From an uncultured delta proteobacterium (GTDB taxonomy: Bacteria; Desulfobacterota; Binatia; UBA9968): DNA of 64,000 nt. Location: contig CAVSHR010000004.1 in the NCBI GenBank assembly GCA_963727625.1, forward strand, positions 352,001 to 416,000, written 5' to 3'. Under the pieces are notes generated by a model. It was not told where the DNA came from. It searched no databases and saw only the letters and a list, made by a program, of their open reading frames with translations. A program made the translations under genes and the position numbers. Shown in pieces: positions 13,534 to 29,577 of this stretch (the first letter of the stretch is position 1; the number at the start of each line of letters is the position of its first letter).

Positions 13534-13614
13534 CCCTAACGAATCAAGCTGAAAGGACGAGACCAGCGAGCGCAGTGAGCGGGTCGAAGATCCGTCTCAA
13601 GCCGATCGTTAGAT
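13534..13614 (-). other. attC site (81 bp)
   Basis: CCCTAAC...GCTGAAAGGA...TCCGTCTCAAGC...GTTAGAT. Confidence 0.85.
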
Positions 13615-13623
13615 GGTGGAGCA

Positions 13624-14289
13624 CTACAAAAACTCGACATAGTCTAGCTTACGAGCAAGATCTACGGGTAAAAAATCGTCGTCCAACCATTGGCTTGGCT
13701 TACCTGTAACGATTACCACAAACCGAAATTCATTTTCTGTGCTGAAAATAGCAGGCTTTTGTGAATAAGACAGTGGCACCGAGGCGACCGTGAGTTGGTG
13801 CAGAGACTTCTCTCCTTTGTTGTACTGCACCACGCATCCTTTGACGCCTCCGCTAAATCCATAAGGGAGTGTTTCCACGAAAGCGCAAATATCATCGGCA
13901 AACTGCCTCGGCTGTTTGATTTTAACAACCCACGGCCCAAAACGCTGTCTTAGCAAATCGATGTCTACACTTGGAAGCGAGCAACTGAATATGAACTTCG
14001 GGTTCAGGAGTTCAATATGACTGTGAACGTATCCAGGTTGAGTCAGAGTCGTTGTCTCGACTGAATCGCGTGAAAAATCCACGGAGGTCACCATTCCATA
14101 GCGCTGGAAATGCCCCTGGCCTTCCGACGAGTCTTTTCGGTTCTCATCTTCAATCTCAGTGTAAATTCTTAGATTGCCCATACGGAATCTGCCGTGCTCC
14201 ACGAAGGCTTCTGCGTATGCTCTTTCTTTGAAGGCACGGAAGACAACTTTAAGAGAGTTTCCGATTGCATGGAGTTTTTTGTCCATCAT
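13624..14289 (-). CDS. Hypothetical cassette protein (DUF2971-like, possible ADP-ribosyltransferase fold)
   Basis: FR..., D..EG, IFSCS, VQY, K..F..ENEFRF motif series. Confidence 0.5.
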   Translation of the reverse strand: MMDKKLHAIGNSLKVVFRAFKERAYAEAFVEHGRFRMGNLRIYTEIEDENRKDSSEGQGHFQRYGMVTSVDFSRDSVETTTLTQPGYVHSHIELLNPKFIFSCSLPSVDIDLLRQRFGPWVVKIKQPRQFADDICAFVETLPYGFSGGVKGCVVQYNKGEKSLHQLTVASVPLSYSQKPAIFSTENEFRFVVIVTGKPSQWLDDDFLPVDLARKLDYVEFL

Positions 14290-14302
14290 CGTGCTGGAAT
14301 CG

Positions 14303-14402
14303 GTCTAACGGCTTGCCGCTCAGCCGCGAGCGGCGCGAAACATCAACTTTCAGATCGGCCATACCCACACGCGCCGATCGGCGGCTCAGCTGCTTGTTAG
14401 AC
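14303..14402 (-). other. attC site (100 bp)
   Basis: GTCTAAC...GCTCAGCCGC...GCGGCTCAGC...GTTAGAC. Confidence 0.85.
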
Positions 14403-14834
14403 CGCCTCCAAGCGTGCTTCGCCATTGGCGTCTTCAGGTATCCGCTTAAGTTCGTCGATAAATCTGTCGAGAAGAACGGGCTCCGAGCACAGGTACATCG
14501 TTGCACGGCTTGCCACCGTCTTTTTGCCGAATTCCCTAAAGTCAGACTCTTGCTCGCAAGTAATGAAAAGCCTTCCAGGCTTCGGAAAGTGAAACCGAGC
14601 ATGAAAGGCACCGTTACCGTACTCACAACCAAACTCACCGAAGCGGACTTCCAAAAGCCCTCCGTAAACATGCGATTTGAAAGCATCGAGATTTGCGATC
14701 GTTTCTGCGAGGTCACGGAACCCTACGTAGACTCGGTTTGCAAAACGGGACGTACCGTCAGCCACCTCGATGGTGAGCTCGACCATGTCGTCGTCGGACC
14801 ACACTCTGGATATGCGTATTCCTTGTTCCATCAT
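14397..14834 (-). CDS. Hypothetical cassette protein
   Basis: ORF fills the cassette; stop lies within the inverse core site. Confidence 0.7.
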   Translation of the reverse strand: MMEQGIRISRVWSDDDMVELTIEVADGTSRFANRVYVGFRDLAETIANLDAFKSHVYGGLLEVRFGEFGCEYGNGAFHARFHFPKPGRLFITCEQESDFREFGKKTVASRATMYLCSEPVLLDRFIDELKRIPEDANGEARLEAV

Positions 14835-14856
14835 GGCGTCGATTCTGTCGGTCTAA

Positions 14857-14908
14857 CGGGTCGGCTTACCCGTCGACCCGTTCGCACGACCGTCTGCGGT
14901 CGGGCGAA
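14857..14908 (-). other. 52-bp ORF-less micro-cassette with a 36-bp mini attC-like hairpin
   Basis: Lies between core sites GTTCGCC and GTTAGAC; internal inverse core TGCGAAC; two hairpins. Confidence 0.6.
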
Positions 14909-14998
14909 CGACAGAACTGACCGACGCGGGCGGTCAGTGACGTCCGAATTGGAAACTGACGCGGCCCGCCCGCGTTCGGTCCAGTGATCTGGTTCGGC
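14903..14998 (-). other. attC site (96 bp)
   Basis: GGCGAAC...ACTGACCGACGCGGGCGG...CCGCCCGCGTTCGGTCCAGT...GTTCGGC. Confidence 0.85.
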
Positions 14999-15005
14999 GT
15001 TCCCG

Positions 15006-15341
15006 TCATGAGTAGAATGAGAGCGCCAGAACCGCTGGCTCTCCCTTTTCGATCCTCCGCCAATTCACGAATGCGGAGCACTCGACCAGCGCATCGTAAA
15101 TCTCCGAGCATCTCTTCCTCAAGCCGCCGACGTCAGAAACGCACAAGACAAGCACATCTCCCGGTGCGACGTGAACAGAACTCAAGCCGTCGTCCGGTGC
15201 ATCCAAGGAAGTCATGCAATCATTCCAAGCGTCCATGTTCCGGCCGTAGAATCCAGGAAAGCCGAGCGCCTGCGAGAACTGATCGTGAAACGAATCCCAA
15301 TCGGTGATTTTGCTGCCGTCGATCTGAATGTTCTTGGGCAT
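15006..15341 (-). CDS. Barstar family protein, cassette gene
   Basis: IDGSKI.DW.SFH..F...LGFPGFYGRNMDAWNDCM. Confidence 0.9.
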   Translation of the reverse strand: MPKNIQIDGSKITDWDSFHDQFSQALGFPGFYGRNMDAWNDCMTSLDAPDDGLSSVHVAPGDVLVLCVSDVGGLRKRCSEIYDALVECSAFVNWRRIEKGEPAVLALSFYS

Positions 15342-15355
15342 CGCGATGCTCTTAC

Positions 15356-15448
15356 GCCGAACGACAAAACTCACCGACGCCGGGCCGAAGATGCTCGCCT
15401 TGGAACCGCAGCGCAATCCCGGCGTTCGGTGCAGTGATTTTGTTCGGC
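15356..15448 (-). other. attC site (93 bp)
   Basis: GCCGAAC...CACCGACGCCGGG...CCCGGCGTTCGGTG...GTTCGGC. Confidence 0.85.
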
Positions 15449-16021
15449 ACGTCCGTCCTCTCGGTACCAAGCGAGTAAGCCCAACAGCCCTGCTTGACTA
15501 CCGTGCCGTGCTATCATCTTGGTCGTGCCGTCGAGAAATCCACAAACGAGCTCTGTGAAAATATCGAGAGCTTCGAATCCCTTCGGAACTGGCTCCCCTG
15601 CGGCTTTGCGCCAGATGCTGATGCTTTCGGCGATGTGAGCCAAATCCTTATCGGTCGGAACATAATCGAGGCGATGCGCAACCTTGTTCCGCATTGCATT
15701 CAGCGCCTTCATCCCGGCGACGAAAAAGTGGAAATTGGCTTGGGGGTGGTCTGCAAGGTCAATCTTCTGAGCAAACGTGAGCCTTGCAGAACCGATTCCC
15801 GGAGACGCAGGATTTGCCGCCTCAAGGTAAGCAGTGAGGAAGTGCTCAAGAACAAGGTGACACTTAAGAATCATCAGCTTGGCTGAGTGGTCAGTGCTCC
15901 ATAGATGCCTATAGTGCGATTTGAACGCGTGGAAATCAGCCTCGATCTGGGGAGCGTCCGCAAGGAGCTTCCGGAAGACAGGTGACTTCTTGAATTCCTT
16001 CCTGAGGCTATCGGTGCTCAT
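15371..16021 (-). CDS. HEPN-like domain protein, cassette gene
   Basis: HLVLEHFL...LTFAQKIDL...LNAMRNKVAH (Rx4H); start set to MSTDS inside the cassette. Confidence 0.65.
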   Translation of the reverse strand: MSTDSLRKEFKKSPVFRKLLADAPQIEADFHAFKSHYRHLWSTDHSAKLMILKCHLVLEHFLTAYLEAANPASPGIGSARLTFAQKIDLADHPQANFHFFVAGMKALNAMRNKVAHRLDYVPTDKDLAHIAESISIWRKAAGEPVPKGFEALDIFTELVCGFLDGTTKMIARHGSQAGLLGLLAWYREDGRAEQNHCTERRDCAAVPRRASSARRR

Positions 16022-16041
16022 GGTGTGTTCAGATTTCTGCT

Positions 16042-16104
16042 GCCGAACGTCATGAATCAGGCTCTTCGGCGCTAGCCGAAATAGCCTGGATTCAGTTGTT
16101 CGCA
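16042..16104 (-). other. attC site (63 bp)
   Basis: GCCGAAC..TGAATCAGGCT.TTCGGC..GCCGAA.AGCCTGGATTCA..GTTCGCA. Confidence 0.85.
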
Positions 16105-17141
16105 TTATTCTTGGCGGCCTTCTTCGTCGCCGGTGCTGGCAGAAGGCGGAGTTGATCCACGGTCTTCTGGAGTTGCCGAACTTCCGTGAAGATGTCGTCA
16201 ACTCCCTTCTCTGCGTCTGCTGAAGAAGGACAGTCAACACGCCCACCCTTGTCGATGAAGACGAACAGATTGCGAATGCCGAGGCTGACGCCGTTGATTA
16301 CATCGCCGACTGGTTTCGGTTTCATCCCGGCAGTGAGTTCTCCGGTGATCTCCTGTGCCGATTTATCGGAGAATGCGTCAGCTTCGGCCTCCAGATCCTT
16401 CTCGATTTGCTTGTTCTCCAACTTCAGCTTCTTGATCTCCTGCACCTGCTTCCTGATGCTCAAGTACTTTTCAACGCGTGCAAGGACACAGTCCACGGCC
16501 TTGCCAACCATGAGGACTAGGCTGCAGGCTGTTGCAACGTCGATGATGAGAGGAGAAGACTTCTGAACAAACACGATCCTGGAGCTTTCAGGCTTCTCGT
16601 CGACCAGTTGGCTGAAAGCCCGAATGATCTTCGTCCATGAGTCAATCCATCCCTCAAATTCAACGATGTTGTCCACTGCCGCCTTCTCTGTGAAGGTGAT
16701 CTCAAGAAGGGCTTCGCCCTTTTGCAGAGCAACATCCTTGAGCGTGGGAATTCGCTGAAGGGCCGATTGAAGATTGCGGTTCCTCTCGAGGAACTGCTGG
16801 AAAGCCTTCTGTTTGGCATCCACTTTCTGAATCACGCCTTGGGGGTCGAAGTTCTCGTCGTACAGTATCGCCTCAAGCTCGCGGACCCCGGCGTCACCAA
16901 CGTACTCGCCGTATCCCAGCACATCGAACAGGTGAGTTTCGCTGTAGGTAAACGATATCTGATCGAATGAACGCAGCGCGCTGAACAGTTGGTCTTTCTG
17001 TTGAGATACTGGTTGTTGCCGGTTGTTGCGGAGCGAGTTGGCGAGAATCTGAAGAAACTGCTCATACAACTGCTCCGCTTTGCTCTTCTGTATGTGTTCC
17101 ACGAGTTTCGTGGCAAGCGTCTTCAGATCATCAACCTTCAT
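16092..17141 (-). CDS. Hypothetical 349-aa cassette protein
   Basis: Long ORF with AG-rich RBS, fills the cassette; coiled-coil-like segment. Confidence 0.75.
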   Translation of the reverse strand: MKVDDLKTLATKLVEHIQKSKAEQLYEQFLQILANSLRNNRQQPVSQQKDQLFSALRSFDQISFTYSETHLFDVLGYGEYVGDAGVRELEAILYDENFDPQGVIQKVDAKQKAFQQFLERNRNLQSALQRIPTLKDVALQKGEALLEITFTEKAAVDNIVEFEGWIDSWTKIIRAFSQLVDEKPESSRIVFVQKSSPLIIDVATACSLVLMVGKAVDCVLARVEKYLSIRKQVQEIKKLKLENKQIEKDLEAEADAFSDKSAQEITGELTAGMKPKPVGDVINGVSLGIRNLFVFIDKGGRVDCPSSADAEKGVDDIFTEVRQLQKTVDQLRLLPAPATKKAAKNNANN

Positions 17142-17160
17142 CGTGTCTTTCTCCTCTCAA

Positions 17161-17241
17161 TGCGAACGCTACGGCTGAACGGACAAGGCCAGCGAGCGCA
17201 GCGAGCGGGTCCGACGATCCGTTTCAAGCCGTTTGTTAGGC
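17161..17241 (-). other. attC site (81 bp)
   Basis: TGCGAAC...CGGCTGAACGGA...TCCGTTTCAAGCCG...GTTAGGC. Confidence 0.9.
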
Positions 17242-17955
17242 CACTCGCGGTGCACACGCCGCTGCCCAGAGAGCAACACTTGCATAAACCCCGACAACCG
17301 ATACTGGAATTGTGAACACGTCACCTTCCCCAAAGGCCCGAACGCCTGCGAGCACAAACCATGAAAGGAGTACCATTAAAAACGCCGTGGCCACCACACC
17401 CTTGGAGCCCCGTGGAACTTGTAAAACGGCGACCGGCAGTCTCACTCCGCGCGTTGAGAGATACCAACCGCATAGCACAAAGGGAAAACCAAGCACACAA
17501 AAGAACACGCTCCCTGCGATTGGGATTGCAATATTGTCCGCCCACCACGGATAGTCTCCACGCTCAAGTGTATATTGCAGCCACAGCAACTGTGCCGGAA
17601 CCCAACCCCACCATGCTGCGGTTGCCATCCAGAACATTCCTCGCCGAGTTGCTAGTGTCCCTAAATGAAACAGATCTCGAAACGTTCGAAGTCGAAGCAT
17701 GAGAAAAAGAGCAGCAATCGACACTCCGAGACTGATTACCGCGGCACCATGGTCCGAGCGTATGGCGGCTGGAGTCAAATTGTTAGCCTGTGCTTCGTAG
17801 AATTTCCGGGACAGATCGCCGGAAAGGTCGCGAGACACGTCCGCGGTCTCGAATTCCCGACGCCAACTTGGATCTGCGTACCTTGACTCGTCGACCGTCG
17901 GAGCAATGAGAATGATTCCGAAAAGTATGATGGCAATTGGGATGGAATAAACCAT
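17236..17955 (-). CDS. Hypothetical membrane protein, cassette gene
   Basis: About 6 hydrophobic segments; fills the cassette. Confidence 0.7.
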   Translation of the reverse strand: MVYSIPIAIILFGIILIAPTVDESRYADPSWRREFETADVSRDLSGDLSRKFYEAQANNLTPAAIRSDHGAAVISLGVSIAALFLMLRLRTFRDLFHLGTLATRRGMFWMATAAWWGWVPAQLLWLQYTLERGDYPWWADNIAIPIAGSVFFCVLGFPFVLCGWYLSTRGVRLPVAVLQVPRGSKGVVATAFLMVLLSWFVLAGVRAFGEGDVFTIPVSVVGVYASVALWAAACAPRVA

Positions 17956-17963
17956 TGTTGTTG

Positions 17964-18034
17964 GCCTAACGCTAGGTTAAGCCGCGCCGAACGAGCGCAG
18001 CGAGCGAGACGTCGGCTTGAACCGTTTGTTAGCC
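17964..18034 (-). other. attC site (71 bp)
   Basis: GCCTAAC..GGTTAAGCCG...CGGCTTGAACC..GTTAGCC. Confidence 0.9.
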
Positions 18035-18140
18035 GCCATGTTCTTCGCGGTTCATCTGCGGTCGATCTCCGGTACGGCGCTGGACGATCCTTCCAACCGC
18101 CGCGCTGATGTGGCGACGTAACCCCGCCGCCGTAGCGCCA

Positions 18141-18758
18141 TCATGATCGTCTGCGGCGAAGGCAGTAAAAGCGAGGGTGTGCTTTCTGCACAAAACGGGG
18201 TGCCCCGGTCAAATCGAATGCTTCCTCGTCGGTGATCGTCCATCCGTCATAAGCTTGTTCGATCTCCTCCCGACTGATGCCTCGCGGCAGGGGTCCTCTG
18301 CGACCCGGTGAGAACGCGTACATCAGGAGCGTGGCGTCCTCGGTGGCCACCGCCGTGACTTCACGGCTCACCGCCCGCACCTGCTCGGGCGGGAGGCCAT
18401 GTACGACGCCAAAGTCCAGGATGAGGCGAAATCCCGAGCCGATGCCTGCGGCCGTGAGCGCCGTGATGCTCCCTTCGACGAATAGAACCTCCACGCCGGC
18501 TCCGCGTGCGCGTTCGCGGGCGGTGCGCACCGCCTTCGGCACGATGTCGACGCCGGTTACCTCCCACCCGCGTTGAGCCAGGCGAACCGACCAGAACCCG
18601 GTGCCGCATCCGAGATCGAGCGCGCGCCCGTAGGGCGGTTCTCGACCGCGCTCCTCTCGGTCAAGGAGCGCGACGGCCTGTTCGCCTATAGGAAGTGACG
18701 GCATCCGCTCCCACGGCGTCATGCCGACCAGATACTGGAATTTGTAGAAAAGGCTCAT
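18141..18758 (-). CDS. Class I SAM-dependent methyltransferase, first cassette of array 1
   Basis: ALDLGCGTG, VTGVD, LILDFG..H. Confidence 0.9.
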   Translation of the reverse strand: MSLFYKFQYLVGMTPWERMPSLPIGEQAVALLDREERGREPPYGRALDLGCGTGFWSVRLAQRGWEVTGVDIVPKAVRTARERARGAGVEVLFVEGSITALTAAGIGSGFRLILDFGVVHGLPPEQVRAVSREVTAVATEDATLLMYAFSPGRRGPLPRGISREEIEQAYDGWTITDEEAFDLTGAPRFVQKAHPRFYCLRRRRS

Positions 18759-18782
18759 TCAACCTCCCGGTAACGCCTTGGC

Positions 18783-18811
18783 GGCTAACCATTAAGTATG
18801 CTGACCAGCAT
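18783..18811 (-). other. attI site of integron 1
   Basis: Core GTTAGCC (18783-18789) is the exact complement of cassette 1 inverse core GGCTAAC; no attC hairpin upstream; adjacent palindrome ATGCTGACCAGCAT. Confidence 0.75.
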
Positions 18812-18844
18812 TTTACAGTCTCTAAAATTCGAATGACGGCGGAA

Positions 18845-18873
18845 ATTCTCCTACCTTTTAAGATGCTTGTCAA
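18845..18873 (-). promoter_or_regulatory. Pc cassette promoter, integron 1
   Basis: TTGACA-17-GAGAAT pointing into the array. Confidence 0.65.
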
Positions 18874-18923
18874 AGCAAACCGGCGGCAGTCGTTGCCGGC
18901 AAAGGCTGACCAGCCTAAGATCA

Positions 18924-20012
18924 TTATGGCCGACCAAGAGGTTGGATCGCACCGATCCCATCCAGCGGGCTTCGGACTCCCCGCCCGCCACGGTTCAAGA
19001 CGTGGGTATAAATCATCGTCGTACTGACGTCGGCGTGTCCAAGTAACTCTTGCACCGTTCGAATATCATACCCATTTTCAAGTAGATGGGTGGCGAAGGA
19101 ATGGCGCATGCTGTGCGGGGCAGCTGGTTTTGTGATATCAGCCCTGAGCCTGGCCTCTTTGAACGCCTTTTGGAGAACGGACTCGTGGAGATGGTGTCGC
19201 CGTTTTTCTCCTGTGGCCCGATCGATGAAATGGCTAGTCGCAGGAAACACCCATTGCCAACCCCATTCTTTGCCTGCGCTCGGGTATTTTCGCTCCAGCG
19301 CATTTGGCAGACTGACGCGCCCCAGGCCCGCCTTCAGATCCTCTTCGTGCTGCCGCTTCACTGCCTCCAGGTGTTTGAGGAGAGGCTCTTTCACCATGGC
19401 GGGAAGCATAGTGTGTCTGTCTTTATCTCCCTTGCCGGCGCGAACGACTAGCTGGTTCCTGGAAAAGTCGACGTCCTTGACCCTAAGACGGCAACATTCC
19501 ATGAGCCGGAGCCCGGCACCATACAAAAGCATGGCCATCAACCACGGAGTCCCCTCCACACAAGCCAAAAGCCGCTGAACTTCTTCTTTCGTTAAGACGA
19601 CGGGCAGGCGTCTTTGCACTTTGGCGCGAACGACACCCTCAATCAGACCGATTTTTCGCTGCAGCACTGCCTGATATAAAAACAACAGCGCGTTGAAGGC
19701 TTGATTCTGCGTTGATGAGCTAACGTGAGACTCTGTCGCCAGGCTGGAGAGAAAACGGGCAATCTCTGGCTCACCCATTTCCGCCGGATGACGCTTGTTG
19801 TGGAAAAAGATGAACCGCTTGATCCAATGAACATAGCTGTCCTCGGTCTTGGGACTGTAATGCCGCGTGCGGATCGCTTGCCGTACCTGTTCGAGGAGTT
19901 TGGGCTTGTGATCGGCGGGCAGCGGTGAAGCTCCGACTCCAAGGTTTTTACCTCCGTCGATCACGGCAAGCGTGCGGTTCATTGATATGCGCGTATTTAC
20001 TGTTTCCATCAT
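18924..20012 (-). CDS. intI: Integron integrase
   Basis: [34 protein letters not shown] plus the IntI-specific insert [23 protein letters not shown]; AAGGAGG RBS. Confidence 0.97.
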
Positions 20013-20025
20013 GCGCCCTCCTTGA

Positions 20026-20210
20026 TTATCCCGCATAGCGTAGCGACTGCTTCCTCGAAAACTCCTTCGCCAACCGCTCATCTGGTTTTCCGTCGTACCG
20101 CGCCTGCAAGTCGAGCCAGTAACGCTCGGACATGCCGAAGTAGTGCGCGAGGCGATGGGCGATGTCGCCGTTGATCGGCCGCTGGCCCTGGACGATCTCG
20201 TCGATGCGCG
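20026..20210 (-). pseudogene. 3' partial duplicate of higA
   Basis: [43 protein letters not shown], near-identical to 20908-21090; N-terminus missing. Confidence 0.8.
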
Positions 20211-20302
20211 AGTGCACCCATTGATCTAAATTCACGGATCCCCAACGGTAACGCCAGGGCCACCACCCTAAGTGCGAATGGGCGAATACCAAAGGTTAAC
20301 GA

Positions 20303-20519
20303 TTAGAGAAGCTCGCGGAATTGCTCGACGGTCAGGCCGGCGTCACGAACGATACCGCCCATCGTAAATGCGTTAACAGGATTGTGGCGTGGAATAGTAA
20401 GAATCCGGCCTCCGCTGGACATCACGATATGCTTTCCTTGCCGCACGATCTGGAAGCCGGCCTTTTCAAGAGCACGAACGGCGTCAAGGTGATTGATTGA
20501 TGCCGGGAATCTTCGGCAA
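20303..20519 (-). pseudogene. hicA: HicA toxin, frameshifted by a 4-bp duplication
   Basis: TTG start PKIPGIN/HLDAVRALEKAGF..RQGKHIVM...IPRH..; extra AATC unit at ~20491-20501. Confidence 0.85.
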
Positions 20520-20521
20520 GG

Positions 20522-20719
20522 CTACACCGACACTTCGACCTCACGGATATTTTCACCGCGAAGCTGTTCTTCGACCACGGCGAGATACTCGCGAATGGCG
20601 TCTTTAATATTTTCTATCGCTTCTTGCTCGGTGGCCCCTTGTGACCAGCAGCCAGGCAATCCTGGCACCGACACGCTGAAACCCTCTTCCGACTGTTGCA
20701 GTGCTATTTTATATTTCAT
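20522..20719 (-). CDS. hicB: HicB antitoxin (short form)
   Basis: FSVSVPGLPGCWSQGATEQEAIENIKDAI. Confidence 0.92.
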   Translation of the reverse strand: MKYKIALQQSEEGFSVSVPGLPGCWSQGATEQEAIENIKDAIREYLAVVEEQLRGENIREVEVSV

Positions 20720-20777
20720 GCTTTATTCCTCTTAAATCTTTGAGCTTATCCGCAAGACACTCGTCCAAGATGGTGCA

Positions 20778-20806
20778 ATTCTAGTAGCATTCCCGGACCC
20801 TGACAA
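20778..20806 (-). promoter_or_regulatory. Sigma70 promoter upstream of hicB
   Basis: TTGTCA-17-TAGAAT. Confidence 0.55.
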
Positions 20807-20907
20807 GCACCATCGCTCGCTGTCGTATTCGCAGCTCAGGAATTCATTCGATCTGCACCCCCACTCGTTGTGCGCACCAGGGCAGGATTCGCCGTACAAA
20901 GATTTTG

Positions 20908-21204
20908 TCATCCTGCGTAACGCAGCGACTGCCTTCCCAAATACTCTTTGGGCAATTCCCCGGCCCGTTCCCCTTCATACTGTGCCTGCAAGTCGAGCCA
21001 GTAACGCTCGGACATGCCGAAGTAGTGCGCGAGGCGATGGGCGATGTCGGGGTTGATTGGGCGCTGGCCCTGGACGATCTCGTAGATGCGCCGCGCCGGC
21101 ACGCCGATATCTCGGGCGAGATGCCAGACACTGATCCCGCGGGGGGCGAGGAAGTCTTCGAGTAAGATTCTGCCAGGGTGTATCATTAAAAGCCTGTTAT
21201 TCAT
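20908..21204 (-). CDS. higA: HigA family antitoxin, no adjacent toxin
   Basis: IHPGRILLEDFL...LARDIGVP..RI.EIVQGQR...RLAHYFG...WLDLQ. Confidence 0.88.
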   Translation of the reverse strand: MNNRLLMIHPGRILLEDFLAPRGISVWHLARDIGVPARRIYEIVQGQRPINPDIAHRLAHYFGMSERYWLDLQAQYEGERAGELPKEYLGRQSLRYAG

Positions 21205-21232
21205 TGTTGAGTCTCCTTATCTAACTTTCCTA

Positions 21233-21266
21233 GGTTCAAGACGTTCAAACCGTTCAAAAAGTTAAG
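21233..21266 (+). repeat. 9-bp-period GTTCAA tandem array
   Basis: GGTTCAAGA CGTTCAAAC CGTTCAAAA AGTTAAG. Confidence 0.75.
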
Positions 21267-21699
21267 CCGTCTCGGATGGGGTCGAAAAGCTCGGACTTTT
21301 TGGACGCTTTGTCGCAGTATATTTTGATCCTTTCATGCCACTGCCCTTTAAGTAGTCAATTAGATTGCTGATCATAATTGATAAACGCCGCAGTGAATTG
21401 CTGGCATCGCTACAGTCTTTCGCCGCTACATACGATTGATCCAGGGCTACGTAAAGTTGACACCGAGCTTCCCCGCACGATCCTTTAGCGACGTAGAGAA
21501 ACTGAATAAACTCTTGGTTGCCGCCCCGTTCGAATCCTTCGGCAATGTTTGACATGATGGAGACAGCCGCTCGGCGAATCTGATCGCGCAATCCGAAATC
21601 TTTTGAGAATTTCGGATCTCTTGTGAGCTGATAAATTGCCCGTGTTAAGGCCCTAGCATCTTTCCAGATTTCCAAATCTTCAAAGTTTTTCACTTGCAT
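21262..21699 (-). CDS. Four-helix-bundle protein (23S rRNA IVP / Avd-like)
   Basis: FEDLEIWK, LRDQIRRAAVSIMSNIAEGFER, F.QFL.VAKGSCGE. Confidence 0.92.
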   Translation of the reverse strand: MQVKNFEDLEIWKDARALTRAIYQLTRDPKFSKDFGLRDQIRRAAVSIMSNIAEGFERGGNQEFIQFLYVAKGSCGEARCQLYVALDQSYVAAKDCSDASNSLRRLSIMISNLIDYLKGSGMKGSKYTATKRPKSPSFSTPSETA

Positions 21700-21711
21700 G
21701 GATGCTCCCTC

Positions 21712-21756
21712 CTAAACAATTTGAACGTTTTGAACGGCTTGAACGATTTGAACGCT
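21712..21756 (-). repeat. 9-bp-period TTGAAC tandem array, inverted relative to 21233-21266
   Basis: TTGAACGTT TTGAACGGC TTGAACGAT TTGAACGCT. Confidence 0.8.
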
Positions 21757-21758
21757 TT

Positions 21759-23303
21759 TTATTCGACCGTCCCCTGCCAGAACCACCGCCGCCTTACCCG
21801 ATCGTAATACAGCCACAACAAATCCCCGCGGCGGGTTTCGGCGAAGTAATACTCGCGCTGGATTTCCCGGTTCCACCAGCCGCCGGAAAAGACGTAGGGG
21901 CCAGTGAGCTTGTCGATGGTGCCGTGCTTGGGGCCGAGAATCAGCCAGCCGTCTTCGTGCGAGTGGTAGGGCCCGCCGGCGAGGCGAACCGGTTTGGCGG
22001 CGATGCGGCGCACCAACATATTTGGAGCGGAGAGGTTCAAGCCGTTCAAATCGTTCAACTGCTTCGCTCCGTTCAAAACGTTTTTGGGCAATTTAAGCTG
22101 GGTCAAGGGCTCCCAGGTAAAGCGCGCTTCGGGCAGGTGGCCGTCGGTGAGCTTGGCGTACACGACAGATTCTTCGCCGAATTCGGCGCGCAGGCGGGCG
22201 AGCGCGCGGTTGGCGGCGTCGAGGTCGCGCGCCGGCTGCTCGGCGAACAAACGAAGCTGCTCACGGGTCGCGGCGCAGGCTTCGGCGCTGAGCTCGATCT
22301 CGCTGACGCCGGCCGGTAGCTGCAGCGACTCCAGCCGCAACCGGACGAGATCCAATATCTGCGCGGCATCGAGCGTCGGTACCGCCGGACGCAGCGACTC
22401 ACGAAGCCAAGGGCCGTGATGGAGCAGCAAAGCGATCTCGAGCGCGAGCAGCGCCTGATGGCGTTGCGCCAGCGTCGCCAGCAGTGGATGGAGCAGTTGC
22501 TTGATCAAAAACAACAGTCGCGTGCTGTCTTCTTCCGGATCGTCGAGAAGATATTTTTGCCGGGCGGGCTCTTCGGGCGCCTGCGGTACGAGCGGCGTCC
22601 AGAGATCGCCGGCGGCCATGCGGTAAAGCCGGTGCGCCTTTTTGCCGAAGCGCTCGCGCAGCCCGCCCGGCGGCAGCGCCAGCAAGCCGCCGACGGTTTT
22701 GATGCCGAGCTTGAAAAGCATGTCGCGAAAAGCGGGCTCGATATTTAGTCGATTGAGCGGCACTTCGCGCGCGACGTTGCGTTCCTCAGCAAGATCGCGA
22801 AAGATCGTGATTCCCTCTCTCGCTTTGGCGACGGCGTAGCTGCCGAAGCGCGTGAAGCCGACGACAAAATGAGCGGTGAATCCTTGGGCGCATAGATCTT
22901 TCTGCATGGCGCAAGCCCACTGCTTCGGCGAGGCATAGAGCCTCTGCAAACCGGCGCCGTTGAGCCAGAAAACCCCGGGCTCCTCGGCCGACGGCTCAAC
23001 CTCGGGAGTAAAGCGCATGAGGCGGTGGGACAAGTCATCGACGGCTTTTTTATTTTCAGCGGCTGAAATCTCGCCGGCGCGGAGCGTCGAAGCCAGAGAA
23101 AACGCTGCGGCGTAGCGCAGGCCGGGCAGCACACCGTGGCGGCGCGCTTTTTCGTTCACCCAGAGGACCACGCCCTGCGGCTTGTCTTCGGCCACCACCG
23201 CCGCCGGATGGCCGGCCCAGTCGGGATGGCGCCGGAGCAAAAGCTGCAGCGGAAAAGCCGGCAGATCAACACAGGCCAGCCGGTCCGTTGTAAAGCTCTT
23301 CAT
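21759..23303 (-). CDS. imuB: ImuB, inactive Y-family polymerase homolog
   Basis: RLACVDLPAFPLQLL, FTPEVE, LGIKTVG.LLALP...LRERFG, C-terminal GP...GGWW...REYY..W. Confidence 0.88.
   Translation of the reverse strand: MKSFTTDRLACVDLPAFPLQLLLRRHPDWAGHPAAVVAEDKPQGVVLWVNEKARRHGVLPGLRYAAAFSLASTLRAGEISAAENKKAVDDLSHRLMRFTPEVEPSAEEPGVFWLNGAGLQRLYASPKQWACAMQKDLCAQGFTAHFVVGFTRFGSYAVAKAREGITIFRDLAEERNVAREVPLNRLNIEPAFRDMLFKLGIKTVGGLLALPPGGLRERFGKKAHRLYRMAAGDLWTPLVPQAPEEPARQKYLLDDPEEDSTRLLFLIKQLLHPLLATLAQRHQALLALEIALLLHHGPWLRESLRPAVPTLDAAQILDLVRLRLESLQLPAGVSEIELSAEACAATREQLRLFAEQPARDLDAANRALARLRAEFGEESVVYAKLTDGHLPEARFTWEPLTQLKLPKNVLNGAKQLNDLNGLNLSAPNMLVRRIAAKPVRLAGGPYHSHEDGWLILGPKHGTIDKLTGPYVFSGGWWNREIQREYYFAETRRGDLLWLYYDRVRRRWFWQGTVE
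22034..22085 (+). repeat. 9-bp-period GTTCAA array, in frame within imuB
   Basis: GGTTCAAGC CGTTCAAAT CGTTCAACT GCTTCGCTC CGTTCAAAA; encodes VLNGAKQLNDLNGLNL. Confidence 0.75.
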
Positions 23304-23862
23304 AGTTCCAAGTGGGACCGCGCCGCTTGTCTTTGAGAACGCTCAGCGCGCAAGCGAAACGGTTGTCCGCCAACCGATGCTTTTCGGCGTGGGCGCGCAG
23401 CGATACCAGCGACCCCAAAGAAAACGCCGTACGGTTTTTTTCGGTGAGACAAATCAGCGCGCTGTGATGACGATGGGCCAGGCCGGTCAGGCGCGTCTGC
23501 AGCGGCATGGGAATATCGGCGGCGCCGAGATCGAGCACGACGACGCCGAATCCGCCCGAGCGCAGAAGTTTTTCGCCGGCGCGGGCGATACTCTCCGCGT
23601 GCACTAAGCGAATGACGACGAGCGTGGCTAAATCGATGCCGCCATGTGCGACGTCCGGCGGATAAAAACAACTCTCCGCCAGCGTCACCCAGCCCACCGG
23701 TTCGCCGCGCTCTTGCGCCTCCCGAATCAAGGTGAAAGCGATGGTCAACGCAGCCGAAGCCGTCGAGCCGGAGATCTCCACCATCCGCCCGGCCACTTCG
23801 TCAAACGTCCACGGCGTCGGTACAACGGCGGGACGAAACTTCAGTGTGGAAGATGAGACCAT
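23266..23862 (-). CDS. imuA: ImuA, RecA-like protein
   Basis: GRMVEISG, FYPP...GIDL..L, EKLLRSGGFGVVVLD; overlaps the imuB start. Confidence 0.85.
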   Translation of the reverse strand: MVSSSTLKFRPAVVPTPWTFDEVAGRMVEISGSTASAALTIAFTLIREAQERGEPVGWVTLAESCFYPPDVAHGGIDLATLVVIRLVHAESIARAGEKLLRSGGFGVVVLDLGAADIPMPLQTRLTGLAHRHHSALICLTEKNRTAFSLGSLVSLRAHAEKHRLADNRFACALSVLKDKRRGPTWNYEELYNGPAGLC

Positions 23863-23922
23863 GGATAGAAACTCCGGGAAAGTTGTCTGCACTGAGCAGG
23901 ACGTAAAAAATGAGATCAGCAA

Positions 23923-23982: not shown

Positions 23983-24038
23983 TGCAGGAATGTAGTTGCA
24001 GGAATGTAGTCGCAGGAATGTAGTCGCAGGAATGTAGA
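23983..24038. repeat. 4 x 14-bp tandem repeat
   Basis: (T/C)GCAGGAATGTAGT x4, no spacers. Confidence 0.9.
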
Positions 24039-24052
24039 AAAGGGAGAGCTTT

Positions 24053-24137
24053 ATTTAACGCTCAAAATGAGCCGTGCGCCACGGCGACATGATCGCGATG
24101 GACGGTCAGGCGCGTCGGCTCCGTTTTGTTGTTAGCC
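24053..24137 (-). other. attC site (85 bp), last of array 2
   Basis: ATTTAAC..CAAAATGAGCCG.GCGCC...GGCGC..CGGCTCCGTTTTG..GTTAGCC. Confidence 0.85.
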
Positions 24138-24164
24138 CGCGACGCTGGTTCTTCATGCCAATGT

Positions 24165-24713
24165 TCACCGACTCTGAAGGCTCAACCGCGCCACAACGTC
24201 GCTCAGGTAGTCACCGTATCCCCAACCTATGTCCTGCGCACGGTTCCGAACCCGAACGAGACGAGCGGTTGCGCGCGTGCGTTCCTCACTGGAGAGTGCC
24301 CCCAGTGATTTCACGATGGCAGCCACCTTTGTCTCAAGCGCTGAAAAGTACGGATCATCGCCGTACCCAAGGTCGACCGCTTGCTCTGTTCCGGCCTCCA
24401 CAAACGTCAGCATCAGATCAACGCTTCCGGCGACATCACCAGTCGAACGACGATATTCTGTGATCGCCGCACTGGCGTCCCGAAGCCGAATCGGACGCTG
24501 GCTCAGGGGATCCGGAAATACCGCAACCTCGACCAAGTGCCGGTACTTCTCAATCGCCGCGGCCGAAGGAAGAAACCGCGCTTCAAGAAAACGTCGATTT
24601 GCCTCGCTTGCCTCGTGCATGTCGTGAACCAGGCCCACCAGTGCCTTTCGATCAAGGGTATCCAGCCGATTCTTCAGTGCGGCCCAACCAGAACTCTTCA
24701 ACACACGGTTCAC
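24165..24713 (-). CDS. Hypothetical cassette protein (DUF6155-like)
   Basis: A.AAITEYRR..GD....DLMLTFVEAG...GYG pattern. Confidence 0.6.
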   Translation of the reverse strand: MNRVLKSSGWAALKNRLDTLDRKALVGLVHDMHEASEANRRFLEARFLPSAAAIEKYRHLVEVAVFPDPLSQRPIRLRDASAAITEYRRSTGDVAGSVDLMLTFVEAGTEQAVDLGYGDDPYFSALETKVAAIVKSLGALSSEERTRATARLVRVRNRAQDIGWGYGDYLSDVVARLSLQSR

Positions 24714-24750
24714 TCTGAGATCCTCGAATTCGAATGAATGATGTTTTGCG

Positions 24751-24807
24751 GGCTAACGCGAAGGCTGAGCGGAGTCTTTAACGCCGATCTCAAGCCGTTA
24801 GTTAGGC
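24751..24807 (-). other. attC site (57 bp)
   Basis: GGCTAAC..GGCTGAGCGG...CCGATCTCAAGCC..GTTAGGC. Confidence 0.85.
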
Positions 24808-24813
24808 GATGAG

Positions 24814-25107
24814 TCAGGCGGCCAATTTCACGGCGACTGAGACACCAGCCTTTGCGCACAGGCCCACGAGGTAGTCCAGAGACAGCTTGTCAACCTTGTT
24901 GCGCGCGATTTCGGAGATGCGGGGCTGGACAATGCCAAGGCGCTTGGCGGCTTCCACCTGGGTAATCCCCTCACGCTCCATCCACTTACGAAGCGCTTCG
25001 GCCAACTCGCAACGCAAAAGCATCACAGCGGCCTCATGCGGTGGGAAGCCGAGATCGAGGAACAGGTTTTTAGAGCCCTTCACTTGCCGTGCTTGCTTCT
25101 TCTTCAT
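24814..25107 (-). CDS. XRE-family HTH antitoxin
   Basis: GSKNLFLDLGF, TQVEAAKRLGIVQPRISEI...LSLDYL. Confidence 0.88.
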   Translation of the reverse strand: MKKKQARQVKGSKNLFLDLGFPPHEAAVMLLRCELAEALRKWMEREGITQVEAAKRLGIVQPRISEIARNKVDKLSLDYLVGLCAKAGVSVAVKLAA

Positions 25108-25427
25108 GTCTTCTCTCCGATTAACTTGTAACGCTGCGCTGCCAGCCTAATGTCCGCCTGGGCCGTCTTTCGGGTCTTCTTCTGAAAAGCGTGCAAGACA
25201 AAAACCGCTTTCTCGAACTTGGCGACGTACACGACGCGGAACGCCCCGGCGGTATCTCGTATCCGAATTTCGTAGGCTCCGGATCCAACCGTCGGAAGCG
25301 GTTTGAAATCCGCGGGTTCACGCCCGACTTGGACCATGAACAGCTCGTAGCCGGCTTGTCGACGCACCGACTCGGGAAAGGCCGCCAAGTCGCGACGAGC
25401 TGTGCCAAGAAAGCGAACCGGCCTCAT
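25104..25427 (-). CDS. RelE/ParE (Gp49-like) toxin
   Basis: DL.AFP, DFKP..TVG.G.YEIRI, VLHAFQKKTRKT. Confidence 0.9.
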   Translation of the reverse strand: MRPVRFLGTARRDLAAFPESVRRQAGYELFMVQVGREPADFKPLPTVGSGAYEIRIRDTAGAFRVVYVAKFEKAVFVLHAFQKKTRKTAQADIRLAAQRYKLIGEKT

Positions 25428-25435
25428 CTCGATGG

Positions 25436-25464
25436 ATTATACGAATAGTCGTATGCACTTGCAA
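25436..25464 (-). promoter_or_regulatory. Cassette-internal TA promoter and operator
   Basis: TTGCAA-17-TATAAT overlapping palindrome ATACGA-N4-TCGTAT. Confidence 0.7.
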
Positions 25465-25474
25465 GTGGCCGCAC

Positions 25475-25538
25475 GTCTAACGAGATGCTTCAGGCGCGCG
25501 TTGCTTTGAACGCGTCGCTCTGAAAGCAATGGTTATGC
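25475..25538 (-). other. attC site (64 bp)
   Basis: GTCTAAC..TGCTTCAG.CGCGCGTT...AACGCG..CTGAAAGCA..GTTATGC. Confidence 0.85.
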
Positions 25539-25829
25539 TGCTGTAAGCCTGACCTTGCCAACTTTCCCGAGCTTTACGCGCTGTTTCGCCTGCCACAAGT
25601 CATAGTTGCATTGCATGGCAAGCCAACTTTCAGGAGAACGTCCCAACGCCTTGGAAAGACGCAGCGCCATCTCAGGACTGACCGCGCTAGTTCCAATAAG
25701 GATGCGATGTAAAGTAGAAGCAGCCACTCCAAGCTTGCTCGCCAGTTCGCGAGCGCTCAGATTGTTGGGCTCCAGATAAACCTCGGCAATGAACTCGCCT
25801 GGATGAGGGGGATTGTGCATAGCCATCAA
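25533..25829 (-). CDS. higA: HigA antitoxin
   Basis: MHNPPHPGEFI...SPEMALRLSKALG.SPESWL.MQ. Confidence 0.92.
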   Translation of the reverse strand: MMAMHNPPHPGEFIAEVYLEPNNLSARELASKLGVAASTLHRILIGTSAVSPEMALRLSKALGRSPESWLAMQCNYDLWQAKQRVKLGKVGKVRLTAA

Positions 25830-26104
25830 TGATAATCCTCGTAGTCTAAAATATAAGCGTGTCCGTCTCTGAACTCAAAAGTTAAACGCCAGTTTCCGTT
25901 CACCCACACCGACCAACGGCCACGCTCCGCTCCCTTCAGCGGATGCAGGCGAAACCCAGGAACGTTCATATCTTCAACAGACTGGGCCGTGTCCAGAGCG
26001 ACCAAAAGCATCCGAAGCCGCTTTCCGTGATGGGGTTGAATACCCGCTGCAATTCCGGATTCAAAGAACTTTCTCAGCCCCTTGTGCCGGAATGATTGAA
26101 TCAT
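25826..26104 (-). CDS. higB: HigB toxin
   Basis: MIQSFRHKGL, PGFRLHPLKG, WSVWVNGNWRLTFEF..DYH. Confidence 0.93.
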   Translation of the reverse strand: MIQSFRHKGLRKFFESGIAAGIQPHHGKRLRMLLVALDTAQSVEDMNVPGFRLHPLKGAERGRWSVWVNGNWRLTFEFRDGHAYILDYEDYH

Positions 26105-26110
26105 GCGCCA

Positions 26111-26140
26111 ATAATAGCTTGTTGCGCATCACGCAACAAG
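26111..26140 (-). promoter_or_regulatory. higBA promoter and operator
   Basis: TTGTTG-17-TATTAT; palindrome CTTGTTGCG-N5-CGCAACAAG. Confidence 0.65.
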
Positions 26141-26148
26141 ACCAAGTA

Positions 26149-26277
26149 GTATAACGCGAAGCTGAGCGGGAGGCGAGGAACGGCATAATATATAGACGCA
26201 GCAATTTGAACTTATAAGCTACCAGTCGTTCAAACGTTAAAAGCTTCTCGCCGATCCGTTCAAGCGAATGGTTATGC
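26149..26277 (-). other. attC site (129 bp)
   Basis: GTATAAC..GCTGAGCGG.AGGCGAG...CTCGCCGATCCGTTCAAGC..GTTATGC. Confidence 0.85.
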
Positions 26278-26754
26278 ATTAGCACCACCAGAGCACGCTT
26301 TCTTTACAAACGGTTGAAGTAGCAAAAGCAACAAGAGACCGCTAACTACACCGATAATAAAGGCTGGCCACATGCTTACATAAACTTCAACCGCCCCATC
26401 CGGAAGAGGTGGTATAGGGACGTCTCGGAACTGATAACTTAGAATCGCGAACTTCACGGTCTCGTATAACTCCAGTAGGAACAAGATAGAACAAACTGCC
26501 AGCGCCAATCTTCGTCCCCACGGCCTAAGTTTGAATAATCCGTAAGCAGACACGAAGGCAGCGGCGGGAAGAAAAACACTCCATCCCAAAGACAAAATAA
26601 CAAACCAGATGTAATCCAAATCCACATTAGAGCAATTTACGAGACATCGTAAGGCCAACCAAATTCCACGAGATCCGGCGAGGACCATCCACAAACCGTA
26701 AGCGCCCAAAATAACAGTGATAAACTGAACTACGTAAGATCTATTTTGGAGCAT
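26272..26754 (-). CDS. Hypothetical 4-TM membrane protein, first cassette of array 2
   Basis: Four hydrophobic helices; ATG overlaps the core site. Confidence 0.7.
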   Translation of the reverse strand: MLQNRSYVVQFITVILGAYGLWMVLAGSRGIWLALRCLVNCSNVDLDYIWFVILSLGWSVFLPAAAFVSAYGLFKLRPWGRRLALAVCSILFLLELYETVKFAILSYQFRDVPIPPLPDGAVEVYVSMWPAFIIGVVSGLLLLLLLQPFVKKACSGGANA

Positions 26755-26780
26755 AACTTGTGATTATACTGACCAGTGTA
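26751..26780 (-). other. attI site of integron 2
   Basis: Core GTTATGC matches the cassette inverse core GCATAAC; CTGACCAG at the same 11-nt offset as in attI-1. Confidence 0.72.
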
Positions 26781-26811
26781 ATAACTTTCTTGAAATCACT
26801 CACGACGGCCA

Positions 26812-26840
26812 ATTTCTACAAGCGTTCCAATACCTGTCAA
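26812..26840 (-). promoter_or_regulatory. Pc cassette promoter, integron 2
   Basis: TTGACA-16/17-TAGAAAT at essentially the same distance from the core as in integron 1. Confidence 0.6.
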
Positions 26841-26897
26841 CTGTTTTAAAAACGTCGGAAAACTCCATACACTGGTCAGTGTATGAATATTACACTG

Positions 26898-26964
26898 CTA
26901 GCGGTCGCCTCCGGTCAAGAAATCCGCCGGGCTCCGAACTCAGCACATGGGTGTAAATCATCGT
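26898..26964 (-). pseudogene. Relic of an intI 3' end
   Basis: TMIYTHVL then a frameshifting deletion then VRSPADFLTGGDR*; compare [20 protein letters not shown] in the intact IntI. Confidence 0.8.
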
Positions 26965-26986: not shown

Positions 26987-27028
26987 ATTCCAAATGTTCC
27001 AGGTGTTCCAATCGTTCAACCCCGTTGA
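26987..27028 (+). repeat. 9-bp-period GTTC(C/A)A array
   Basis: ATTCCAAAT GTTCCAGGT GTTCCAATC GTTCAACCC. Confidence 0.6.
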
Positions 27029-27050
27029 TGATAACATCTAACTCGCACTA

Positions 27051-27791
27051 TTAACCCAAAATCCGCTTTGAGCTTCTCGAACCTATTTCCGGCATTTCGT
27101 CCCATGTTCTGCCGTCCAGCTTACGACCCGTAAGCTTCTTTCTCGTCCCGCCCCATTGTTTAAAGAAGAATGGAACCCCTTGAGCGATGCATCGGTCTCT
27201 AATCTTTCTGACCCACTGCGGATCAATAATACGCGCTCCAGGACCAGACTCACCACCGACAATTACCCACTGGATTCCTTGGAGTGGTAATCGAGGAATA
27301 GGTCCCAACAAAGGCTCAACTGAGAGAAACCGGACTGCTGCAGGCACTTTTCGCAAATGCTCAATGCGATAAGCATATTCCGCATTCTCAACGCTCACGC
27401 CCATCCAGATATTGTCATGCCAGGGAAGTTTTCTTGCGAGCTCGAAAACTCTTTCCGCGCGCTTCGTTAAAATCTGGAAGGTATGCCAAGGAGTTTTTCC
27501 CATCACGTCAAAAACCGATCGGATGAATTCAAACGGCACATCAGGATGAAACAAATCGCTCATGGAATTGACGAAAATCTTCCGTGGCTGATGCCAGCGC
27601 AGAGGCTGACCGAGAACATCCGGCTGTAAGGTTACAGCGAAATTATTCCGATACCTCACCTGCCCCATCGCATACAGCCTGCGCGCCATCCGATGCGCGT
27701 AACAGTTCTTGCACCCTGGGCTAATTTTCGTGCATCCGGTCACCGGGTTCCAGGTTGCGTCAGTCCATTCAATCGCCGAATCTTGGGCCAT
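27051..27791 (-). CDS. DUF5131 / phage Gp37-Gp68 family three-Cys protein
   Basis: [52 protein letters not shown]. Confidence 0.92.
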
Positions 27792-27801
27792 ATATACCTC
27801 A

Positions 27802-28683: not shown

Positions 28684-28845
28684 ACATTACTGCGTCGTTT
28701 CGAAGCAATTAAAATGCACCTACAACGATAGCCGCTGCTTTGAGGTCGGTACCACAACGAATCCTGAAAAACTAGCCAAACATTAGATGGGCTTCCGCCC
28801 ACACTGCATCGAACCGTTCCAGGAGAGAAGTTTCGAAGTTTGACA

Positions 28846-29546: not shown

Positions 29547-29557
29547 GAAAGCTTGTA

Positions 29558-29577
29558 TACTGAAAATATTTTCAGTA
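29558..29577. promoter_or_regulatory. LexA operator within the lexA promoter spacer
   Basis: Perfect palindrome TACTGAAAATATTTTCAGTA within TTGACT-17-TATACA. Confidence 0.85.

Follow-up and report, generated by a model that had tools for sequence, protein, structure and literature searches.

Repeat clusters around the cassette promoter of two reverse integron platforms in a Binatia genome, and their possible role as accessory integrase sites

Background

The window analysed here is a stretch of 64,000 nucleotides from an uncultured delta proteobacterium of the Binatia (assembly GCA_963727625.1, contig CAVSHR010000004.1, positions 352,001 to 416,000). It contains two look-alike stretches, each with a core site, a promoter-like sequence and a pair of palindromes of the form CTG-NN-CAG, which a first-pass annotation had read as one module of integron attachment site (attI) and cassette promoter (Pc), present twice. 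What are these stretches, and what are the palindromes for? Judged from the sequence, they are the attI sites and built-in Pc promoters of two head-to-tail reverse integrons on the minus strand. The distal palindrome (D) and the proximal palindrome (P) are a conserved part of attI that has so far gone undescribed; we infer that the integron integrase, IntI, is their binder, and any effect on Pc is put forward in the same way. With some doubt, we lean to the reading that the palindromes are accessory IntI-binding sites flanking Pc.

Such sites deserve attention, since attI has been dissected by experiment in few classical integrons only. For reverse integrons, and for those of soil phyla, where most of the cassette diversity is found, almost nothing is known of it.

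Two reverse integron platforms

How is each module built? On the minus strand the order is the end of intI, palindrome D, TTGACA-17-(G/T)AGAAT, GCCGTC, palindrome P, 11 nt, the GTT junction, and then cassettes with attC sites. The elements are given below; every one that the first-pass annotation had listed, at either site, was found at its coordinates, correct to the base.

Site 1 and platform 1
18783-18789, minus strand: core GGCTAAC (GTTAGCC on minus), the attI-cassette junction, crossover G|TT
18798-18811, minus strand: proximal palindrome P, ATGCTGACCAGCAT on plus, ATGCTG-GT-CAGCAT on minus
18835-18840: GACGGC (GCCGTC on minus)
18845-18873, minus strand, towards attI and cassettes: candidate Pc, TTGACA 18873-18868, 17 nt, GAGAAT 18850-18845
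18903-18916, minus strand: distal palindrome D, AGGCTGACCAGCCT on plus, AGGCTG-GT-CAGCCT on minus
18924-20081, minus strand: intI, integron integrase (TIGR02249, 467 bits, cut-off 265)

Site 2 and platform 2
26751-26757, minus strand: core GCATAAC (GTTATGC on minus), the attI-cassette junction
26765-26780, minus strand: proximal palindrome P, TATACTGACCAGTGTA on plus, TACACTG-GT-CAGTATA on minus, one arm mismatch
26804-26809, plus-strand reading: GACGGC
26812-26840, minus strand: candidate Pc, TTGACA 26840-26835, 16 or 17 nt, TAGAAA or AGAAAT, from the sequence and its alignment to site 1 and to the related locus L244
26867-26884: distal palindrome D, ATACACTGGTCAGTGTAT on plus; on minus CATACACTG-AC-CAGTGTATG, 9+9 perfect, 26866-26885
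26886-26964, minus strand: remnant of the second intI, codons ..TMIYTHV.. onward, with an internal 17-nt deletion; the alignment with the intact intI and module of L244 starts at 26964
28938-29582, same strand: lexA, directly upstream of platform 2

The minus strand carries intI, the promoter, the cassette open reading frames (ORFs) and the attC sites alike. As in reverse integrons, intI runs in the same direction as the cassettes and attI lies at its 3' end. At site 1 only 6-7 nt separate the intI stop from palindrome D. The product of this intI aligns full-length to the VchIntIA structure 2a3v (E 6e-90), and in that alignment it carries the R, K, HxxR, H, Y motifs and the IntI-specific insertion. 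Its true start is likely near 20012, where an ATG follows a Shine-Dalgarno-like AAGGAGG. In platform 2, about 25 C-terminal codons of intI are left and the first ~350 are missing; tblastn found no further intI sequence upstream of the remnant. Site 2 can be recognised in this way as an orphan platform with an intI remnant alone. From the layout of remnant and intact gene, the window holds two head-to-tail platforms, a decayed one beside lexA and a complete one 7 kb on.

Are the core sites real junctions? An integrated cassette begins with the TTRRRY of its own attC. Junction 1, GTTAGCCGCC, is complementary at 10/10 positions to GGCGGCTAAC, the R'' end of the first attC (18034-17964); junction 2, GTTATGC, is complementary at 7/7 to GCATAAC, the R'' of the first attC behind it (26277-26149); and the second cassette of array 1 gives the same complementarity at 8/8. 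This complementarity establishes the core sites as true attI-cassette junctions. GTTAGCC and GTTATGC each match the GTTRRRY consensus at 6/7 positions. Behind site 1 there are seven attC-like sites and behind site 2 three, all on the minus strand; they come from a heuristic finder with folding, the complementarity applying to cassettes 1 and 2 of array 1 and the first of array 2. The integrase gene or its remnant, the junctions and the attC arrays together bear out that an attI-Pc module is present twice.

The geometry around the promoter is tight. At site 1 there are exactly 11 nt from the core to the 8-mer CTGACCAG at 18801, where the right arm of P abuts or overlaps a putative L box ACTTAAT, and 78 nt from the core to TGTCAA at 18868-18873 (TTGACA on minus). 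The 8-mers of D and P are 105 bp apart at site 1 and 103 bp at site 2. A consensus promoter scan called Pc at site 1 (10/12); Pc at site 2, with its weaker -10 box TAGAAA/AGAAAT, was not called by the same scan. Among RNA sequencing runs, none was found to contain this locus. If transcription starts 7 nt past the -10 box, the predicted start of site 1 is at ~18838, within the GCCGTC motif, and relative to it D is centred at ~ -71, P at ~ +34, the crossover at ~ +50 and the first start codon at ~ +81. The window has 6 copies of the 8-mer CTGACCAG/CTGGTCAG where 1.08 are expected; 0/100 shuffles reach 6, and 4/6 copies are within the two modules. The looser form CTGNNCAG shows no enrichment in the window (12 found, 11.8 expected).

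Conservation of the palindromes in relatives

Does the arrangement exist anywhere else? A search led by the integrase protein found relatives of IntI at 80 genome loci and at 80 metagenome loci. CTG(GT/AC/AT)CAG was found within 260 nt after intI in 0/80 of the genome loci. At L009, the closest genome locus (77% identity), the layout is the same but for a single base change, TTGACA-17-GAGAAT followed by ..ATATACTGGTCGGTATACTCAATGGTT, and both palindromes are present in the metagenome loci L089 (83%) and L090 (74%). A pattern for P and the core only, CTGNTCAGNATANTNAATRGTT, gave 71 genome-contig hits, mostly Bacteroidota coding region or chance. From these, 22 were picked by eye as modules: 16 have a -35 box or D in register, and the 6 with neither are less sure. 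Together with the two window sites (W1 and W2) and the three loci reached through intI (L009, L089, L090) they make 27 modules; all counts exclude loci L246, L256 and L259 of genome G005.

Across the 27 modules the distance from the proximal 8-mer to the junction G is 19 nt, a value that the pattern itself fixes in the 22 modules found with it, in which D, the -35 box, the -10 box and the left arm only were free to vary. TTGAC[AT] is placed at -81 to -85 from the junction G in 18/27, and the -10 box, read from the printed module sequences, is (G/A)AGAAT or GTAAAT, 17 nt past TTGACA. A distal 8-mer CNG-RY-CNG lies 99-106 bp upstream of P in 15/27, often as a half-palindrome only. The metagenome-assembled genomes that bear modules carry labels of at least six phyla, including Acidobacteriota, Binatia, Nitrospirota, Methylomirabilota and Eisenbacteria. 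It had been claimed that the paired palindromes flank Pc at a conserved spacing, which agrees with what is found here. The layout also recurs downstream of homologous intI genes in the closest integrase lineages, and there the claim passes the test that the first-pass annotation had set for it.

Could these shared elements be nothing but inherited sequence without present function, kept by kinship and by the way the search selected them? The relatives do share ancestry, many platforms are decaying with intI lost, and 22/27 modules were found with a pattern that contains P. Pairs that were not selected on D speak against it. W2 and L244, an intact locus of the same genus found through intI and not through the motif, agree at 18/18 positions of D, 16/18 of P, 6/6 of the -35 box, 5/6 of the -10 box and 10/12 of the L box and core, so that 34/36 palindrome bases are kept against 39/74 in the rest. 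W1 and four relatives found through intI or through P only (L215, L089, L009, L187) agree at 14-16/18 of P (78-89%) and 8-14/18 of D, against 42-51% elsewhere. The spacing stays within ~3 bp while the intervening sequence is ~50% diverged. Mere inheritance is quite unlikely in this light. In these alignments P is strongly and D moderately conserved, and the spacing is held within a few bases across DNA of about half identity; conservation of the elements above their surroundings is established.

An intact adjoining intI is absent, with no full gene within 1.5 kb upstream, in 13/16 of the secure pattern-found modules, in 19/22 overall, and in W2. Those of the pattern-found loci (L169-L239) that lack intI adjoin ordinary chromosomal genes. 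In this module family, attI-Pc heads without an integrase gene may outnumber complete platforms.

Repeat units and integrase lineage

If the palindromes matter to integron function, what stands at the same places in related platforms that lack them? Sister platforms of the same IntI clade have 1-2 repeats just after intI and 1-2 repeats 10-25 nt before the L box, and their sequences differ:

L091, L242, L254: ATATACGAG, three copies in direct orientation
L010, L017, L255, L257: (A/G)ATAGGCYGC
L092: ATAACCCGCC
L011, L243: CTATACGGAAG
L019: GATAWACTGCGG
L040, L100: wider dyads ATAGRCTGCA-N5-TGCAGYCTAT

Since other repeats occupy the same two places, the conserved block is an 8-9-bp unit and not the palindrome. 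The unit has the form (A/T)TA-K-R-C-Y-G, in the window palindromes (A/T)TA(K)(R)CTG, and each window palindrome is two such units tail to tail with a 2-bp centre. When the sequences are read side by side, the units look much like the junction's R box (TTAGGC, TTATGC against TAGGCTG, TATGCTG). Exact 10-mers repeated 60-180 bp apart were found in 31/138 post-intI regions, against 154/2760 shuffles and 14/138 intI-coding regions; a looser test allowing one mismatch in the 10-mer did not discriminate (104/138 real, 405/690 shuffles, 112/138 coding).

There are at least five unit types within one genus, and in genome G014 the unit types differ between two intI genes that lie 18 kb apart. In a quick IntI tree of 77 rows, the six rows with the window type of unit fall in two sub-clades of one 13-row clade (SH-aLRT 99), and one of these sub-clades has the CTATACGGAAG type as its sister. 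In the sequences compared, it is the platform or integrase lineage, not the host, that the unit type follows. The two genes of G014 are on one strand of contig C15, at 184057-185001 and 202187-203131 (L243 and L254), the upstream one adjoining lexA. Tandem integrons seem to be a feature of the genus of G014 and the window.

Which protein would recognise these units? The attI1 site of class 1 integrons, studied by Collis, Gravel, Partridge and co-workers, reportedly consists of a simple site with L and R boxes and the accessory IntI1-binding repeats DR1 and DR2. By analogy with DR1 and DR2, and as intI is the only gene common to the platforms, the units are taken here as IntI-binding sites. No other gene was consistently linked in a scan of one upstream ORF for each of 18/19 modules without a full intI and two for L214, with L224 left out; the neighbours were unrelated housekeeping enzymes, transporters and one different tyrosine recombinase.

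A second candidate is a dimeric transcription factor other than IntI that acts on Pc through D and P as operators, such as a host regulator, LexA or a cassette-borne antitoxin like HigA; the last two had been named as possible binders in the first-pass annotation. The dyad symmetry and the centres at ~ -71 and ~ +34 around a strong promoter would suit operators, lexA lies just upstream of the platform here and in relatives, and many modules keep the sites without a neighbouring intI. A regulon would then be expected, and none is seen: the 6.6 Mb genome has 259 CTG(GT/AC/AT)CAG sites, fewer than its composition predicts, and only 8/259 have three or more further symmetric pairs, 3/8 of them in the two modules. 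No CTG-N2-CAG lies upstream of lexA, imuA or recA, and no CTGNNCAG occurs in 20000-21300 or 25000-26700, where the higBA, higA-like and gp49/HTH pairs are; LexA and HigA are unlikely as binders and were rejected. Moreover, modules in at least six phyla, with units that vary within a genus and within a genome, are not explained by one host factor, no regulator gene is consistently linked, and the units of sister lineages are direct repeats, not dyads. Another regulator is, on balance, unlikely.

Alternatively, do the palindromes work as hairpins of RNA or single-stranded DNA, D as a stabiliser or terminator of the intI 3' end and P as a leader hairpin or folded recombination signal? A small palindrome hairpin is predicted in 3/4 of the folded stretches, and a GC-rich terminator-like hairpin lies beside D in L089 and L215. 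The variable pair of P in the 27 modules is AT 10, GT 9, GC 4, AC 1 and other 3; the excess of G-T over A-C is what wobble pairing on the transcribed strand would allow, and the counts fit an independent purine/pyrimidine choice as well, giving no convincing covariation. The leader and the intI 3' end fold no better than shuffles (z = -0.25, -2.17, -0.44, -1.54), the minimum-energy fold of the site 2 leader does not use the palindrome as its own hairpin, and the stems are of 5-6 bp and A/T-rich. It is the loop-forming centre CTGGTCAG that is most conserved, which a constraint on the stem only does not predict. Rfam gave no match, and in sister lineages these places are occupied by direct repeats that are not palindromic. 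A hairpin function is very unlikely and was set aside. The same counts bear on the claim that largely symmetric arms point to selection: the elements are conserved above their surroundings, while compensating arm changes are unsupported, given the pair counts of P and a D that is often half-palindromic.

Lastly, D and P might be secondary double-strand recombination sites, with inverted arms and a 6-bp TGGTCA spacer, at which IntI or a Xer-like enzyme inverts or excises the ~105-bp segment with Pc. ATATAC-TGGTCA-GTATAC has the arm-spacer-arm form of tyrosine-recombinase core sites, and the asymmetric centre, GT or AC, has opposite orientations in D and P of W2, L244, L090 and L179 and the same orientation in those of W1, L187 and L203. 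A switch of this kind should leave reversed or deleted products, yet the promoter is reversed in 0/27 modules and forward in register in 18/27. Among the modules without Pc, of which L169 keeps a P-type left flank, none was recognised as a D/P hybrid left by deletion. Of the sampled words, 5-7% matched in DNA runs. Contigs from four metagenome runs extended over single cassettes and short conserved stretches and gave no context for the modules; at D/P of site 2 they showed two short two-sided matches (sides of 22 and 29 nt), from diverged relatives and with no clean joints. An invertible promoter switch (fimS-like) or excision was rejected, although repeats do flank Pc, and we regard it as most improbable.

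Cassette arrays and neighbouring genes

The arrays behind the two sites, and other features nearby, are as follows.

13534-18788, minus strand: platform 1 cassette array, possibly extending further left
18141-18758: first cassette ORF of array 1, SAM-methyltransferase (Pfam Methyltransf_25)
18034-17964, ~17241-17140, 16104-16042, 15448-15356, 14998-14903, 14402-14303, 13614-13534, minus strand: attC-like sites of array 1
24057-26756, minus strand: platform 2 cassette array, from family scans
26277-26149, 24807-24751, 24135-24057, minus strand: attC-like sites of array 2, the last one read by eye
29742-31334: gene of a VWA protein, near lexA

Array 2 contains a 160-aa membrane protein, HigB/HigA, a Gp49-like toxin with an HTH_37 antitoxin, and a 182-aa ORF; the cassette genes of both arrays include several orphan ORFs. 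The place of the ~350 lost codons of the second intI is occupied, at 27051-28683, by genes for TcmP (three-Cys-motif partner) and for a DUF5131 protein, a relative of radical-SAM mobile pair protein A. The two genes have the look of a mobile pair that took the place of most of the second intI. In metagenome loci L136 (554-823), L093 and L095, an ORF for a GIY-YIG nuclease (PF01541, E 2e-13) lies inside intI after ..ELLGH, with no Rfam intron match at the insertion. The truncated intI remnants of the window (~26964), L181, L187 and L202 begin within ~10 codons of that insertion point. This point, in the region of the catalytic tyrosine, may be a break-prone or homing site.

The SOS genes form a second theme. 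The adjacency of lexA and intI on the same strand recurs in five published loci of relatives (L090, L252, L254, L247, L201), in L090 with the order VWA protein (92% identical to that of the window), S24 peptidase, intact intI and module. From this recurrence, the integrase may be SOS-timed by gene order and not by a LexA box of its own. Short tandem repeats of GTTCAA/TGGAAC with a period of 8-9 bp, at 29700-29730, 28808-28870 and ~26990-27035, flank lexA and precede the intI remnant, and similar repeats flank the lexA-like gene of L090; they may be the LexA operators of this lineage. Upstream of imuA (23266-23922), at ~24000-24055, four tandem copies of a 14-bp CTACATTCCTGCGA-like unit stand just before imuA-imuB, and among the window ORFs there is none of dnaE2 size after imuB.

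Within the window, metagenome contigs join 21257/21258 to 21721-21730, skipping ~465 bp (21258-21724); on account of this skip, the four-helix-bundle ('23S rRNA IVS protein') gene at 21262-21699 (PF05635) is an insertion that may be present or absent. Next to it, the 35-nt stretch 21720-21757 turns up in very high numbers in one soil run, where its flanks are many and unrelated.

Discussion

How might accessory integrase sites work at such a place? Transcription of intI would run into a spacer of ~140 bp, in which the distal unit cluster, a near-consensus sigma-70 Pc directed towards the cassettes, the proximal unit pair, a putative L box ACTYAAT and the G|TT crossover follow one another. The units may be the counterpart of DR1 and DR2 of attI1, helping IntI to assemble on double-stranded attI. 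With IntI at both clusters, ~ -71 and ~ +34, Pc would be bracketed and could be occluded or looped during recombination, and a bridge between D and P would enclose ~10 helical turns. The geometry of D and P around Pc is real and conserved; binding by IntI, a loop and any effect on transcription are proposals. A bolder version can be drawn, in which IntI binds and bridges both clusters, loops out ~105 bp with Pc and turns cassette transcription off or resets it while attI recombines. Orphan modules would be controlled by an integrase elsewhere (platform 1 over platform 2), and lexA upstream of intI would make an SOS-timed switch between expressing and reshuffling the cassettes. We put this forward as speculation that will probably not hold in full.

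Several points weigh against the accessory-site reading. Most pattern-found modules and W2 lack an intact intI, so an integrase in trans or another binder would be needed. The L box and core (ACTYAATRGTT) are common to lineages whose units differ, so the units are not a simple mirror of one core-recognition specificity. The centre CTGGTCAG is more conserved than the arms, which is unusual if the arms are protein-contacted boxes. Linkage and common descent alone would also make the unit type track the IntI lineage. Finally, the conservation of P among the 22 pattern-found modules is partly circular because the search pattern fixes P and the core.

What would accessory integrase sites at this place mean? 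The module is a defined, conserved and compact (~140 bp) architecture, which predicts the integrase-bound bases and the start of Pc, and it leads to the proposal that integrase occupancy and cassette transcription may be coupled. Its signature finds attI-Pc heads without intI and could improve the annotation of integrase-less arrays.

Then how far is the module new? Reverse integrons have been described before, as have attI, Pc and accessory integrase sites. In the open literature, that is, outside the subscription-only attI1, attI3 and Treponema papers, no account was found of a reverse integron whose Pc stands between repeat clusters, and no integron paper was found to contain any of four motif strings. 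The annotated claim of a distinct attI architecture is right in that palindromes flanking Pc recur, and goes too far in that the arrangement is that of the known reverse integron and site 2 is an orphan.

The closest model for the units is attI1. The two share the G|TT crossover, which lies in a GTTRRRY-like R box, together with an imperfect inverted L box and, upstream on the integrase side, R-box-like repeats. In class 1 integrons Pc is inside intI1, and DR1 and DR2 are adjacent direct repeats. Here, unlike class 1, intI is co-directional with the cassettes and the units are arranged as tail-to-tail dyads, in two clusters ~105 bp apart with Pc between them; the unit sequences are unrelated to DR1 and DR2.

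Two further systems offer partial parallels. Integron integrases are said to be under SOS control through a LexA box in PintI (Guerin, 2009). An SOS link is present here too, with lexA directly upstream of the platform and imuA-imuB downstream of array 2; unlike that control, the palindromes are not at PintI, nor at lexA, recA or imuA, and the link would lie in the gene order lexA-intI. In the gal operon, the operators OE and OI, ~113 bp apart, form a two-operator repression loop. The two dyads described here likewise stand ~10 helical turns apart and bracket a promoter, one upstream of the -35 box and one in the early transcribed region, a likeness which is a functional analogy only.

In overall arrangement, the nearest relatives are the reverse or 'unusual' integrons known from Treponema denticola, Chlorobium and Blastopirellula. 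As passages of two papers describe them, intI and the cassettes are transcribed in one direction, and the stretch from the intI 3' end to the first cassette contains Pc and attI (PMC6557892, PMC4909258). Compared with these passages, the window platforms are like the Treponema denticola type in the direction of intI and cassettes and in the place of Pc and attI. For the attachment region, the passages on reverse integrons give L and R integrase-binding sites and a putative Pc, with no repeat clusters flanking the promoter (PMC6557892, PMC4909258). The hosts differ as well: the platforms studied here belong to soil and sediment lineages, unlike the reverse integrons of Treponema, Chlorobium and Blastopirellula.

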